A stretch of 16,659 nt of DNA from a virus (taxonomy: Duplodnaviria > Heunggongvirae > Uroviricota > Caudoviricetes). This document shows, one piece after another, positions 1,584 through 16,659 of the stretch. Below the pieces are notes generated by a model that was not told where the DNA came from, did no database searches, and worked only from the letters and a program-made list of their open reading frames with translations. The stretch lies in the IMG/VR virus record IMGVR_UViG_2548876696_000013. One strand, written 5' to 3'. Numbering within the stretch: position 1 is the first letter of the stretch; every line of letters starts with the position of its first letter. Made by a program: the position numbers and the translations under genes.

Positions 1584-1609
1584 AAACAACGTGGAACAAA
1601 TAGACACAA
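1584..1609 (+). repeat. Three 10-bp-phased NNACAA hexamers (AAACAA-cgtg-GAACAA-atag-ACACAA); candidate recombination-directionality-factor or regulator binding array near the island terminus
   Basis: Hexamers at 1584, 1594 and 1604 with exact 10-bp spacing. The 14-mer ACAACGTGGAACAA at 1586-1599 is identical to the one at 9161-9174. Confidence 0.5.
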
Positions 1610-2308: not shown

Positions 2309-2590
2309 TTACCGCCGTAACCGCTCCGGCTTCTTCCAGTGATACGTGATTTTCTCCTTCTCCCGATACAGTTCAACGCGGCGATTGTAGGCCAGCATTT
2401 CCAGAACGCGGATCCGTATGTCGCGCATATCCGCATCATTAAGCTGGATACCATCACGGCGCATCACCTCAGCAACAACACGCGCATAATTTTCGGCTGT
2501 CACGCTGTCCGGCTGCGTGGTCTGTTCGTCAGCCTGCTGGCTGATTCCAGAGACGCGGCGGATTAATCGCAGTATTTCGGCTTCTGTCAT
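2309..2590 (-). CDS. Hypothetical protein (93 aa), last gene of the packaging operon
   Basis: ORF begins 13 nt downstream of the TerL stop on the same strand, with a GAGG motif 9 nt upstream of the ATG. No family recognised. Confidence 0.55.
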   Translation of the reverse strand: MTEAEILRLIRRVSGISQQADEQTTQPDSVTAENYARVVAEVMRRDGIQLNDADMRDIRIRVLEMLAYNRRVELYREKEKITYHWKKPERLRR

Positions 2591-2603: not shown

Positions 2604-4265
2604 TTACACCCCGCTAAATTCTTCCAGTTTCTGGCGGTGGCTGTCGCTTATATCAAAAGCAAAATCCTCATGCTCTGCCTGGAATGTACCAAACGCCATC
2701 AGCGCCGCTACGCTCGGGTCTATCTTGTTCGGTGATTTTTTCTTGTTCGGCTTGATATTGGCGTTCGCGTCACTCTGCATCACGACGTTACTCATCGACC
2801 AGGACAACACCGGATCGCCACGATGCACAATCACCCTGCGGTTAACAAAAACTTCGAACGATTTCGCCGCCGGACTGAATCTGAGGTAGGTTTGCGGGAA
2901 CGGCTCCACCTCAAAACCAGCCCCCTGTAATTGCGTCCTGAGATGCGTGGCGTTCCACGTATCAAAGCCCACCAGCCTGATATTAAATTTCTCCGCATCC
3001 TGCATGATGTCATCTCTGATCCGGTCGTAATCAATGCAGTCACCTGGCGTTGTGCGTATCCAGCCCGCTTTAGCCCACTGGCGATAGACAGCGCGGTTTT
3101 TATTGGCGGGGTTCTGTAGCTGGAACTCCGGCAGATAATGACGGGAAACCAGCATGATATTTTTACCGACCGGAAAGGCATAGCACACGCTGGAAATATC
3201 GCTGGTTGATGATAAGTCCAGCCCCGCGTAACACTCCTGCCCGTGTAAATCTTCCTCCGTGAACGTTCCGGCACACTCAGCCCATGCGCCGTTACCCATC
3301 CACGGGGTAGCCCCCTGGCACCAGATATTAAATCGCTTTGTCATCATCTCCACCCATTGCGACGGAATACCCCGCGCTTTCTGGATGGTTGAGGCCAGTT
3401 TTTCACGATCCACGGAAACATCGATGTTAGGGTTAGCCTTTATCCACATCGCCGGATCATCAACCTCGTTTTCGTCGTCCAGCTCGTAAATCAGCACAAA
3501 AATTGAATCGTTGACCTCTTCGCCGTCCAGGATCTGGCAGCAATAATCATAGTGCTGTTTACAGGTTGAAACGACGTTACTGCCCGATGTGGTAATGGCA
3601 AATAACAGCCCTTCGGGACGTGCGCCCATCCCCAGCTCAAGCGCGGAATAAACGCCGTTATCGGGGTGTAGGTGGTATTCGTCCACGATGGAAAGGCTGG
3701 GGTTTGTTCCCTCGATGGTTGCCGCTTTTGCTGCCAGCGGCTTTAACAGGCTGTTGCTTTTCGGGTGCATCACCTTGTGGGCCTGAATATTCACCCGCCT
3801 GCGTAACGGTCGGGATAAAAGGCACATCTGACGCGCATCATCAAAAACGATCCGCGCCTGGTCACGGCTCACCGCTGCGGTGTAAATATCCTGCTGCCCG
3901 TTCTCCATAATCAGAAACCAGTTAGCCAGAATCGCGGCGGTCGTGGATTTCGCATTTTTGCGCGGCACTTCGATAAAGGCGCTCGTGTATTTGCGCCGTC
4001 CGGTGGCCTTAACCTTAAAGCCGAGGATGCACGCAAAGGCGAACTGCTGCCACGGCTCCAGCTCAATGGGTCTGCCACGCATCGGCCCTTTTACGTGCGG
4101 GCACACCCTGGAAAAGGCAATAAACCGCTCCACAACCTCACGATCGAACGTGTAAAGGGGGCTTTCAAGGTCCGAAAAGTACCGTTTAACGGCCTGTTTC
4201 AGCCGTTTACAGGCCGGAATTTTGCCCGTTTTTACGTCTTCTGCGTACTTATTCCAGGCGGTCAA
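2604..4265 (-). CDS. terL: Terminase large subunit (553 aa)
   Basis: N-terminal ATPase with Walker A-like VPRKNAKST and a C-terminal nuclease region; its start overlaps the 3' end of the TerS gene. Confidence 0.9.
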   Translation of the reverse strand: MTAWNKYAEDVKTGKIPACKRLKQAVKRYFSDLESPLYTFDREVVERFIAFSRVCPHVKGPMRGRPIELEPWQQFAFACILGFKVKATGRRKYTSAFIEVPRKNAKSTTAAILANWFLIMENGQQDIYTAAVSRDQARIVFDDARQMCLLSRPLRRRVNIQAHKVMHPKSNSLLKPLAAKAATIEGTNPSLSIVDEYHLHPDNGVYSALELGMGARPEGLLFAITTSGSNVVSTCKQHYDYCCQILDGEEVNDSIFVLIYELDDENEVDDPAMWIKANPNIDVSVDREKLASTIQKARGIPSQWVEMMTKRFNIWCQGATPWMGNGAWAECAGTFTEEDLHGQECYAGLDLSSTSDISSVCYAFPVGKNIMLVSRHYLPEFQLQNPANKNRAVYRQWAKAGWIRTTPGDCIDYDRIRDDIMQDAEKFNIRLVGFDTWNATHLRTQLQGAGFEVEPFPQTYLRFSPAAKSFEVFVNRRVIVHRGDPVLSWSMSNVVMQSDANANIKPNKKKSPNKIDPSVAALMAFGTFQAEHEDFAFDISDSHRQKLEEFSGV

Positions 4266-9157: not shown

Positions 9158-9205
9158 TGAACAACGTGGAACAACCACGAACAAATAATTTACAAAAAAT
9201 AACAA
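9158..9205 (+). promoter_or_regulatory. Array of 10-bp-phased GAACAA hexamers upstream of the capsid operon; candidate activator-binding site
   Basis: GAACAA at 9159, 9169 and 9179 with spacers CGTG, CCAC and ATAA; two weaker ACAA copies follow at 9192 and 9202. Same motif family as 1584-1609 and 15338-15383. Confidence 0.5.
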
Positions 9206-9225
9206 AAAGCCGGATTGCTCCGGCT
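9192..9225 (-). terminator. Rho-independent terminator after the 74-aa gene
   Basis: Hairpin AGCCGGA-ttgc-TCCGGCT (9208-9225) followed on the minus strand by a U-rich tract; the gene's stop codon is at 9236. Confidence 0.7.
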
Positions 9226-12821: not shown

Positions 12822-13107
12822 GTGAAAGGCTCCCAGATGAAATTTAAGGAGTCTCGCTACTACGCTGCTAAACGGGGTGGCGAGACGTAACAGGGTTAGC
12901 AGACTGGTCATCTGGAAACCAGCGAGCGCAAAGGCTCCCCCGTTACGCCCCGCCATAATGCGGGTATGGGTAGGTTTACGGACACAAAAAAACCGCTTAT
13001 CGGATATGGGCGGCTGTCCGCCAGATGTATTCAGGCTGCTAAACCCGGTCGCCATGTGGGCGACGGGTGAAGCATACAGCCCCGTTATAATTTTTTGCAA
13101 GCGGCTT

Positions 13108-14866: not shown

Positions 14867-15055
14867 TTAGTGAACTGCCTTGCAGCTATCCTTCCAGGCC
14901 AAAACCTCAGATAAAGACCAGCCAACAGAACGCCCACCAAGTTTACGACGTGATGGGAATTGTCCGGCCTTTTCCAGGCGGTAGCGGCATGAGCGGCTAA
15001 GGCCTGTTAGCTTTTCGCATTCTTTTTCACGTATAAACCGATCAGTGCTTAACAC
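14867..15055 (-). CDS. alpA: AlpA-family phage regulatory protein / excisionase-like HTH (62 aa, GTG start)
   Basis: Motif KLTGLSRSCRYRLEKAGQFPSRRKLGGRSVGWSLSEVLAWK is typical of the AlpA/Vis family. SD AAGGGGG lies 7 nt upstream of the GTG. Confidence 0.85.
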   Translation of the reverse strand: MLSTDRFIREKECEKLTGLSRSCRYRLEKAGQFPSRRKLGGRSVGWSLSEVLAWKDSCKAVH

Positions 15056-15214
15056 TATTGCCCCCTTTCGTTTCTTAAAGAGTTATTTCGTGTTCTATTG
15101 CGTTGGGATGTGTCTGATTGTGTCAGGATGATTCAGAGTTGGCAAATGTTGGTGTCGCATGGTTTACAGAAAGAGGAATAATCAGGATAAAATCATTTAA
15201 ATTCATATCAATAC

Positions 15215-15337: not shown

Positions 15338-15383
15338 TTGTTCGTGATTGTGTCACGTTGTTGCACATTGTTTCACGTTGTAT
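15338..15383 (-). promoter_or_regulatory. Five exactly 10-bp-phased NNACAA hexamers (minus-strand orientation) with CGTG/TGTG spacers
   Basis: Plus-strand TTGTTC, TTGTGT, TTGTTG, TTGTTT and TTGTAT at 15338, 15348, 15358, 15368 and 15378. Located 47-92 bp downstream of the int stop codon. Confidence 0.55.
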
Positions 15384-15429: not shown

Positions 15430-16659
15430 TTATTTTATTCTGGTTACTGGTAGCGTGGTTACGTTTTCATGTGTTCCCGCCAGTATCTCCAACCGCTCCA
15501 CCCACATATCAAGCGCATTGCGTTTCGCATCAATATAGCGGGAATGGTTGTACACGCGTTGCATTCCTGGCATCTGGTGGCCTGTAAGCTGCTCCACGAC
15601 GTGAGGATCAACGCCTAAATCGTTCAGCATGGTTGTAAAGGTGCGCCGGATGTCATGCAGTGACCAGTGAGGGTGTTTAAGCCTCCTGTGCACCAATCTG
15701 CCGTACTGCGATACGCTGGTTTCCTGTTTCACTTCCCCCAGCAATAAGCCCGTGTGCCTGTTCTGCTCCACCAGCTGCGTGACGAACGGCAGTATCGCTT
15801 CCGGTATGGGCCGGAATATGGCTACCTTCGTTTTGCTGTGCTCCTTCGGAACGGTCCAGAGCATTTCGGTAAAATCCCACTCGCCGATCTCCGATAACCT
15901 CAGTTCTACTGTCCGGCATCCGAAAACAATCAGGAGGCGGATTAGTGCGACGTAGTAAGGGGAAAATATTTTTTTGTCCAGTGCCTGCAATAATTCGCCA
16001 AGTTCTTTGTTACTTAAGACACGCTCACTTATATCCGGTTTTTTCCCAACGTCCGCCACACTCATATCATCAAGAACGTTGCTGATTGCATAGCGCCGCT
16101 TCCTGCAGAACTTAAGCGCCTGCTTGCATGTCTGTAGCAGGAACCCGGCGGAAACAGGGGCTTTCTTTGCCACCCGATCAAAACAGGCCAGCCAGTGCCG
16201 TAGCTCGCATTTATCCAGCGGCATAGGGCCAATGTGCTGTATTACGTGATTATTTAGCCGCTTTTTCAGTGGGTCATAATCCACACGGTTTTCCTTTGCG
16301 TACGACTCAAGCCAGTAGGTGAGCGCATCGCCAACCGTTACCGGCTTTAACGCTTCCTGTACGGTGTAATTCATTTCATGACGTGGATTTTTCCCCTCTG
16401 CCAGCCATGCGCGACACTGGGCGGCTTTTTCCCTGGCTGATTTCAGGCTCAGATCAGGATAATTTCCCAGCTTAATGCGTTCCGGTGGTGCCCCCCTTCC
16501 CGTTCCGGCCCTGTAAGTGAAATACCAGGTTAAAAGGCCACTGGTTGAATGCCTGACGCTCAGGTTTCCACCGTCATTAAGAAAGGCTGTTTTTTGGGCG
16601 GGTGTGCCGTTGATTTTCCTCAGCTGTGTATCGCTCAGTTTGTTAAGTGCTCTGCTCAT
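15430..16659 (-). CDS. int: Tyrosine site-specific integrase, P4-like (409 aa; start codon is the last three bases of the window)
   Basis: N-terminal arm-binding-like region (LSDTQLRKI ... DGGNLSVRHSTSGLLTWYFTYR) and a C-terminal catalytic region with conserved R, HxxR and Y (HDIRRTF ... YNHSRYID). The upstream RBS is outside the window, so the true start could lie further out. Confidence 0.9.
   Translation of the reverse strand: MSRALNKLSDTQLRKINGTPAQKTAFLNDGGNLSVRHSTSGLLTWYFTYRAGTGRGAPPERIKLGNYPDLSLKSAREKAAQCRAWLAEGKNPRHEMNYTVQEALKPVTVGDALTYWLESYAKENRVDYDPLKKRLNNHVIQHIGPMPLDKCELRHWLACFDRVAKKAPVSAGFLLQTCKQALKFCRKRRYAISNVLDDMSVADVGKKPDISERVLSNKELGELLQALDKKIFSPYYVALIRLLIVFGCRTVELRLSEIGEWDFTEMLWTVPKEHSKTKVAIFRPIPEAILPFVTQLVEQNRHTGLLLGEVKQETSVSQYGRLVHRRLKHPHWSLHDIRRTFTTMLNDLGVDPHVVEQLTGHQMPGMQRVYNHSRYIDAKRNALDMWVERLEILAGTHENVTTLPVTRIK

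Follow-up and report, generated by a model that had tools for sequence, protein, structure and literature searches.

A 10-bp phased ACAA array in the integrase-distal attachment arm of a capsid-forming PICI is a candidate binding site for AlpA

An array of ACAA units in exact 10-bp phase was found in the integrase-distal attachment (att) arm of a capsid-forming PICI (cf-PICI), within the 16,659 nucleotides that were analysed here and are referred to as the window. The arm is built like that of P4, and it is likely that AlpA, the candidate directionality factor of the island, docks on the phased units and promotes excision, and the same arrays at other loci would couple further functions to it. 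This kind of site is already known from P4 and from the dual-purpose design of other directionality factors; it is now located for this island family and introduces no new principle.

The window starts with phoQ (1-1461, + strand). All ORFs to the right of phoQ are encoded on the - strand and, according to Pfam matches, code for TerL, a P27-type TerS, an HNH nuclease, a portal protein, a prohead protease and the major capsid protein, as well as for an SSB, a RepA-like helicase, a 62-aa Phage_AlpA protein and a tyrosine integrase. The candidate directionality factor and activator is encoded by alpA (14867-15055, -; Pfam Phage_AlpA, E = 5e-18). The integrase gene int (15430-16659, -) encodes a protein with an N-terminal arm-DNA-binding domain (Arm-DNA-bind_3, PF13356, 7.8e-18) and a catalytic domain (Phage_integrase, PF00589, 4.7e-17), which is the domain organization of a heterobivalent integrase. 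The element thus combines int, alpA and a replication module with genes for capsid, protease, portal, HNH nuclease, TerS and TerL, lacks tail and lysis genes, comprises about 15 kb and has a PICI-specific att site, in agreement with the published definition of cf-PICIs (bioRxiv 10.1101/2022.09.08.507074). The window therefore consists of phoQ and a cf-PICI of the EcCIEDL933 type of ~15 kb that is located between phoQ and roxA. An element with 96-97% identity and the same annotation is present between phoQ and roxA in E. coli STEC2017-197 (L001), and the same phoQ/roxA site is occupied by EcCICFT073 (strain CFT073; L004) and by the O157:H7 island EcCIEDL933/Sakai Sp7. In an Rfam scan the sole match was a C4 antisense RNA (RF01695), the P1/P7/P4-type immunity RNA, in the early region at 12873-12960 (-; 71.6 bits, E = 1.5e-12), and no RNA family was matched within 1462-2300.

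The island boundary was determined by comparison with E. coli genomes. The phoQ part of the query was matched in all 5426 complete E. coli genomes, and in those free of the island the match to the window ends at 1466-1469. The empty site in strain 55989 consists of GATGAATAAATATGTCC joined to ATACTTCACG, while the left junction in the window reads GATGAATAAATATGTCC followed by TTTTATCA and the right junction, as seen in L001, TTGATAAAATATGTCC followed by ATACTTCACG. The 7-bp overlap at which crossover takes place, TATGTCC (1463-1469, +), is identical in the left junction of the window, in the right junction of L001 (32660-32666) and in the empty site of strain 55989. It comes just after the phoQ stop codon and forms the left island boundary; chromosomal homology ends at 1469, and island-specific DNA begins at 1470. 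The overlap is preceded by the chromosomal core half-site B (TGAATAAA, 1455-1462, +), which includes the phoQ stop codon and is conserved in island-free strains, and is followed by the island core half-site C' (TTTTATCA, 1470-1477, +). C' is a perfect inverted repeat of the island half-site C (TGATAAAA), which is located before the overlap at the opposite end (L001 32652-32659) and is like half-site B at 6/8 positions. The deduced attP core, TGATAAAA-TATGTCC-TTTTATCA, is a perfect 8-bp inverted repeat around the 7-bp overlap, and attB reads TGAATAAA-TATGTCC-ATACTTCA. This agrees with a P4-type attP core, in which inverted core sites of Int enclose a short overlap that recurs identically in attB.

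In relatives inserted in tqsA, the DNA in common with the window starts at about 1478-1491, and the segment 1470-1700 travels with related islands that are inserted in tqsA, at clpS/cspD and elsewhere. The initial annotation, which was made from the letters of the window, had placed the junction between about 1462 and 1580, and the crossover indeed lies in this interval, 115 bp from the array. It had also named two observations that would speak against its reading, namely a junction far from the array and conservation of 1462-1700 as chromosomal DNA in strains lacking the island. Neither was made: homology to island-free E. coli stops at the overlap, and 1470-1700 is absent from island-free genomes and mobile with islands. 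A duplicate of the att core, which the initial annotation proposed to look for beyond int, is present as TATGTCC at the right junction of L001.

The array itself reads AAACAA (1584-1589) cgtg GAACAA (1594-1599) atag ACACAA (1604-1609) on the + strand of the window, with an exact spacing of 10 bp. Its start was measured to be 123 bp past the phoQ stop codon (TAA, 1459-1461), confirming the three units, the 10-bp phase and the distance of about 120 bp described initially, and it is positioned 115-140 bp inside the phoQ-side end of the island. The initial remark on the lack of an island gene between array and junction was likewise correct, as the nearest island ORF is found at 2309-2590 (-). The 16.6-kb window was searched with the pattern RMACAA-N4-RMACAA-N4-RMACAA, allowing at most one mismatch. 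Four matches were obtained, at 1584-1609 (+), at 9159-9184 (+) and, overlapping each other, two at 15338-15373 (-), whereas 0.01 were expected from dinucleotide-preserving shuffles and none of 200 shuffles reached four. The phased motif, which had been implied to occur more than once, is thus real and recurrent. Placing the array in register with its counterpart in the other arm revealed a fourth, degenerate unit (GCACTG, 1574-1579). The complete array of GCACTG, AAACAA, GAACAA and ACACAA (1574-1609, +), proposed to be the AlpA binding sites of the integrase-distal arm, shows the sequence features of a directionality-factor array: three perfect and one degenerate direct repeat are spaced by exactly 10 bp, they are located within the att arm of the element next to Int arm-type sites and less than ~150 bp from the crossover, and the element encodes, with alpA, a candidate for the cognate factor. 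A PhoP box ((T/G)GTTTA, 11-bp period) was considered for the same letters and rejected, since the array has a period of 10 bp, its units read TTGTGT, TTGTTC and TTGTTT in reverse and it is mobile far from phoPQ.

Rightward from the core, the arm consists of the C' half-site, an IHF-like site, an A-rich conserved block, two 12-mers, a 7-bp linker and the array. The IHF-like site (AATCAATGACTTG, 1489-1501, -) matches the consensus WATCAANNNNTTR exactly and has an A/T-rich flank; it is a probable bend site for IHF. The ATTGATTTAATTAA block is kept in the arms of phoQ-site and tqsA-site islands and of L061, which is inserted at one further site, and is degraded in the L064 group. The two tandem 12-mers, ATTGACTACACC and ATTAACTACACC (1543-1566, +; repeat family D8), follow the consensus ATTrACTACACC and are the proposed arm-type sites of Int; the initial annotation had passed over them. 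Conserved palindromes (GGGGATCCCC-ATAACGGGGC and ACCGGATTTTTTTTCCGG), present in most related arms, were observed at 1673-1717, at a distance of about 65-110 bp on the right-hand side of the array.

The window stops at the int start codon, and the sequence of the opposite end of the island was therefore taken from L001, a close relative with a 100% identical Int. There the same module occurs in the same orientation: its 12-mers occupy 32508-32531 and lie 26 bp upstream of the start codon of int, its array units GCACAA, CTACAA, AAACAA and GAACAA follow at 32539-32574, and the overlap comes next. Tandem 12-bp arm repeats are therefore present on both sides of the core; between pair centre and overlap centre there are 141.5 bp in the int-side arm and 90.5 bp in the distal arm. 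A 12-mer pair with a 4-unit array in the same orientation and register was found at both ends of L001, L003, L004, L005, L009 and L010. This combination is confined to the island ends, and the pair is absent elsewhere in the islands. The proposal that the array marks the integrase-distal att arm thus held in so far as it sits in this arm beside Int arm-type repeats; its specificity for this arm did not, because an equivalent array is present in the integrase-proximal arm. The arrangement was also found in an 11,098-bp metagenomic contig (L059, IMGVR_UViG_3300045988_152974) with an intact attP. The ends of L059 overlap exactly over 119 bp, which implies that a tqsA-type relative was assembled here in circular or concatemeric form. 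Both modules flank TGATAAAA-TGCTGTT-ATATATAA and the distal array is identical to that of the window; L059 carries a natural attP of the predicted structure.

To the right of the arm, in the non-coding region between the att arm and the last island ORF (1890-2316), a composite repeat is dispersed in five copies. It consists of a short palindrome (CCTCAAATTGAGG, CCCCAATGGGGG or GCTCAAAATTGAGC), ~10 nt and the sequence (A/T)ATCAACnnnnTTA. The latter matches the IHF consensus exactly; in total, 7 exact matches to this consensus are present in the window, compared to 0.73 expected. Similar AATATCA-N-GTTA repeats are located at the equivalent place in L009 and L010. It is possible that the cf-PICI has its packaging region (cos/terminase-IHF) at 1890-2316.

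Conservation was analyzed in an alignment of 21 distinct distal arms from islands at a minimum of five insertion sites. Compared with islands of the L064 group, the 12-mers and the linker are 100% identical and the array 92%, while the next 60 bp are 58% identical. Array conservation amounts to 92-97% where the following 60 bp are 58-68% identical, and it stops right after the last ACAA. Substitutions within the array affect the 4-bp spacers and the first two bases of the units and leave the ACAA cores intact. The island at clpS/cspD (L010) has another linker and other units (CGAACAA x3) and keeps the register to the 12-mers. All related loci of sufficient length have an array at their distal end. 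The arm is carried by 886 of the 5426 E. coli genomes, and its position is kept there and in dozens of IMG/VR loci; the alpA group is carried by 955 genomes, a number close to that of the arm. Among the 30 records listed of the 886, no annotated feature was located under the arm.

To which protein the 12-mers and the ACAA units belong can be read from their covariation with Int and AlpA. When the N-terminal residues of Int change, the 12-mers change in type too, TTA being replaced by GTG or by CTGACCACAC. In tqsA-type islands all four 12-mers are AGTGACTACACC instead of ATTAACTACACC, and the N-terminal 100 residues of Int are 80% identical. In the same islands the DNA-binding core of AlpA is identical or differs in one residue (S/T), and the ACAA arrays are essentially identical. 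In thiM/rcnR islands the Int N-terminus is 59% identical, and the 12-mers are AACTGACCACAC at both ends. A natural chimeric Int was observed in L051 (IMGVR_UViG_2859821903_000003), with residues 1-55 identical to the tqsA-type and the remainder of phoQ-type. This island is inserted at phoQ/roxA, yet carries arm 12-mers of the tqsA-type (GTG), providing comparative evidence for a joint modular exchange of the arm-binding domain and its presumed sites. Since the 12-mers switch with the Int N-terminus, including the case of L051, they follow the arm-binding domain of Int and neither its core specificity nor AlpA. As far as sequence can assign a binding protein, the covariation shows the 12-mers to be Int arm sites that track the first ~55 residues of Int. 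The ACAA array stays constant while the Int N-terminus and the 12-mers switch, and the ACAA units are therefore not Int arm sites.

Further arrays were found by pattern match upstream of alpA and of the capsid/packaging operon. The array at alpA comprises 5 units (15338-15383, -) and is located 283-328 bp upstream of the start codon. Among 65 IMG/VR loci with an AlpA of at least 90% identity, 64 have an array at -273 to -351 of alpA. The array upstream of the capsid/packaging operon (9159-9205, +) has 3 strong and 2 weak units, and in cf-PICI relatives the capsid-operon array is found 4.8-6.8 kb downstream of alpA. Both arrays are without 12-mers. The capsid-operon array is located directly downstream of an intrinsic terminator (9225-9208, -, plus T-run). 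In a promoter scan, no sigma-70 consensus promoter was detected between this array (9159-9225 region) and the capsid gene, which suggests that the promoter of the capsid operon is activator-dependent. Directly upstream of its start codon, alpA has another, degenerate array in 10-bp phase (15085-15150, -; ACACAA, ACACAT, ACGCAA, ACAC..), which overlaps the -10 element of a promoter-like sequence, TTGCCA-17-CACAAT with TG (15145-15117). With the arrays at 15338-15383 and 15085-15150, alpA therefore has a distal and a proximal array.

AlpA shares 47% identity with P4 Vis (E = 4e-17) and matches PDB entry 8c3t, an AlpA family protein. Both the recognition helix (SR-x-x-RY) and the wing (GGRSVGW) are retained in AlpA variants of 49-69% identity, as is GAACA(A) in the arrays of these variants, which would fit AlpA and other binders alike. 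AlpA acts as activator of its own promoter, and its overexpression leads to int-dependent excision of EcCICFT073 (PMC6092414). The Sakai relative Sp7 has been found to circularise (PMC2669165). Operators of directionality factors are typically direct repeats one helical turn apart, to which the proteins bind cooperatively and where they bend the DNA; several of these factors double as transcription regulators, and their operators are reused at promoters in 186, P2 and P4 (PMC7498355). Because the array recurs at alpA and at the capsid operon, AlpA overexpression causes excision of EcCICFT073, AlpA is a homologue of Vis and the layout is that of such an operator, AlpA is the best candidate for the ACAA units, and we infer that it is most likely the protein that binds the array. 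A literature search yielded no description of AlpA binding to PICI DNA, of an AlpA operator or of PICI/cf-PICI arm sites in the searchable literature, and AlpA binding-site data were absent from a paper on the AlpA of Shewanella CP4So. The binding element of P. aeruginosa AlpA, a single GGGACG between -35 and -10, was considered as well and set aside as a different motif, the likeness being in name only. P. aeruginosa AlpA is a 21Q-like antiterminator with DNA-contacting residues up to H142 (PMC9371919); going by this published description it is much larger than the 62-aa Phage_AlpA protein of the window and incompatible with it.

The following sequence of events is proposed. A helper phage would turn on alpA, and small winged-helix AlpA monomers, homologues of Vis, would line one face of the helix by cooperative binding to the phased units and thereby bend the arm. 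AlpA and IHF could then help the N-terminal domains of Int, sitting at the adjacent 12-mers, to bridge to the core, and the excisive complex assembled in this way would recombine both junctions at TATGTCC. Binding at 1574-1609 would thus promote excision. With arrays at the int-side 12-mers, at alpA and at the capsid operon, one protein could couple excision with control of int, self-activation and late-gene expression.

Several other explanations of the array were weighed against this proposal. It could be a purely transcriptional operator, bound by AlpA or another regulator, for a leftward promoter that would read antisense into phoQ in the integrated state and across attP into int in the excised circle, without any architectural role in recombination. 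In favour of this, the capsid operon and int, both transcribed leftwards, each have the same (+) array on their right, the modules of the left arm and of the int side are nearly copies of each other, and Pint of P4 is repressed by Vis and Int (PMC7286903). No sigma-70-like promoter was detected near 1470-1620 on either strand, in a scan that misses Pint too. Moreover, distance and register of the array to the 12-mers and the core are fixed across insertion sites in a P4-like geometry, which is a requirement of a recombination complex and not of a promoter. A purely transcriptional role is therefore considered rather unlikely. Tandem Int arm sites may be ~10-11 bp apart in lambda attP, and the array adjoins the 12-mers in both arms, so the ACAA units might be taken for extra arm-type sites of the integrase, comparable to lambda P'1-P'3. 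This is quite improbable, because it is the 12-mers that covary with the Int N-terminal domain whereas the ACAA units are constant across Int types, and because the arrays in the alpA and capsid-operon regions lie 1.3-7 kb from any core and have no 12-mers.

A host winged-helix response regulator is a further potential binder, since phased direct repeats also serve as sites of OmpR- and PhoP-like proteins, and TGAAACA and TGGAACA among the units presumably resemble OmpR-type half-sites. Another island or helper protein, for example the inducer of alpA, would be a comparable candidate, given the array upstream of alpA and a helper inducer of this gene that is still to be named (PMC6092414). Either binder would tie the behaviour of the island to a signal of the host or the helper. 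The array, however, has a period of 10 bp compared to 11 bp in PhoP boxes, and it is carried along by islands inserted at tqsA, thiM and clpS, which makes the neighbourhood of phoPQ incidental. A host or helper activator would also leave unexplained why arrays stand in register with the Int sites of both att arms, and we give binding by such a protein a very small probability. Units as short as these may arise by chance or be a non-functional leftover, but the four matches obtained against 0.01 expected, and an arm position that is kept in 886 E. coli genomes while the flanks diverge, make this explanation next to negligible.

The reading preferred here, an AlpA-bound array that promotes excision, has difficulties of its own. 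The int-side array is located 54 bp upstream of the int start codon, although AlpA had no effect on Pint in EcCICFT073 (Fillol-Salom et al., PMC6092414), and a directionality factor binds one arm only in lambda-type systems, while in this island the array is present in both arms. On which strand the array stands also varies, being that of the gene at the alpA promoter and the opposite one at the capsid operon and int, an unusual arrangement for a simple activator. More tentatively, and with some doubt on our part, the phased (G/A)AACAA motif could be an undescribed AlpA box of Gram-negative PICIs, whose four arrays would couple excision, integrase control, self-amplification and late expression. 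If true, arrays in both arms would imply that AlpA forms filaments on attL as well as attR in the excisive complex, and in the circle the two modules would be ~232 bp (~22 helical turns) apart and could act as a circle-specific switch of int. What is most interesting about the array is that both arms carry it and that it is reused at four loci. PICIs and cf-PICIs are widespread satellites that move virulence and defence genes, with AlpA as master switch. A map of the arm at base resolution gives exact island boundaries for annotation, and the array is a concrete operator that can be mutated in order to separate the role of AlpA in excision from its role as activator.

The closest known relatives, EcCIEDL933, EcCICFT073 and Sakai Sp7 (L004, L005), share insertion site, int, alpA, arm module and arrays with the window island, which is 85-97% identical to them in the arm region and not the same isolate. 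Excision or circularisation has been demonstrated experimentally for these relatives (PMC6092414; PMC2669165; bioRxiv 10.1101/2022.09.08.507074), in published work that does not include arm sites or an AlpA operator. For helper-embedded PICIs, which are AlpA-encoding Gram-negative PICIs, a doubled motif TGTATTGC with an 8-bp core at 12-bp period was described (Mageeney et al. 2023, PMC10111431). Its two co-oriented copies are located 81 and 132 bp from the attP centre, it was reported to be absent from other PICIs, and either the Int arm domain or AlpA was left open as its binder (PMC10111431). The motif differs in sequence from the one found here, where the equivalent 12-mers are assigned to the N-terminal domain of Int and a separate ACAA array lies beside them. 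The arm map thereby offers an explanation for the orphan doubled motif of helper-embedded PICIs.

In lambda, three phased Xis sites (X1-X1.5-X2) lie in the P arm (attR) beside Int arm-type sites and sites of host bending proteins, and serve excision only. The array of the window island resembles them in having three phased sites in the integrase-distal arm that adjoin Int arm-type sites. To our knowledge, lambda Xis has neither a role as transcriptional activator nor sites in the P' arm. The orientation of int also differs, as it points towards att in lambda and away from it in the island. The sites of 186 Apl and P2 Cox are like the array in that direct repeats about one helical turn apart are located in an att arm and at promoters (PMC7498355). 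Apl and Cox, however, belong to another protein family and are not members of Phage_AlpA; their sites are found in one arm and repress promoters of the lysis-lysogeny switch, whereas the arrays described here are present in both arms and at AlpA-activated promoters.

A further parallel is provided by the satellite phage P4. P4 Int is a full-length homologue of the island Int with the same N-terminal arm-binding domain (23% identical, E = 2e-15), and Vis, the homologue of AlpA, is an excisionase as well as a regulator of late promoters and of Pint (P4 record; PMC7286903). The P4 record lists 12-bp "attP arm sequence repeats" in tandem pairs at 3942-3965 (int side) and 4151-4174 (distal) and the core at 4078-4097. 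The P4 pairs are thus 134 bp (int side) and 75 bp from the core centre, and the island exceeds P4 by about one helical turn in each arm. The repeats are not the same in sequence, with ATGCCCCCAA in P4 and ACTACACC in the island, and P4 integrates in a tRNA-Leu gene, whereas the island occupies the phoQ-roxA intergenic region and overlaps the phoQ stop codon. In P4 (L091), a 10-bp phased triplet of GGACAA, GGAAGA and GGACGA was observed at 3975-4010, following the int-side pair of arm repeats and mirroring the PICI module; by analogy, this triplet may be a site for Vis.
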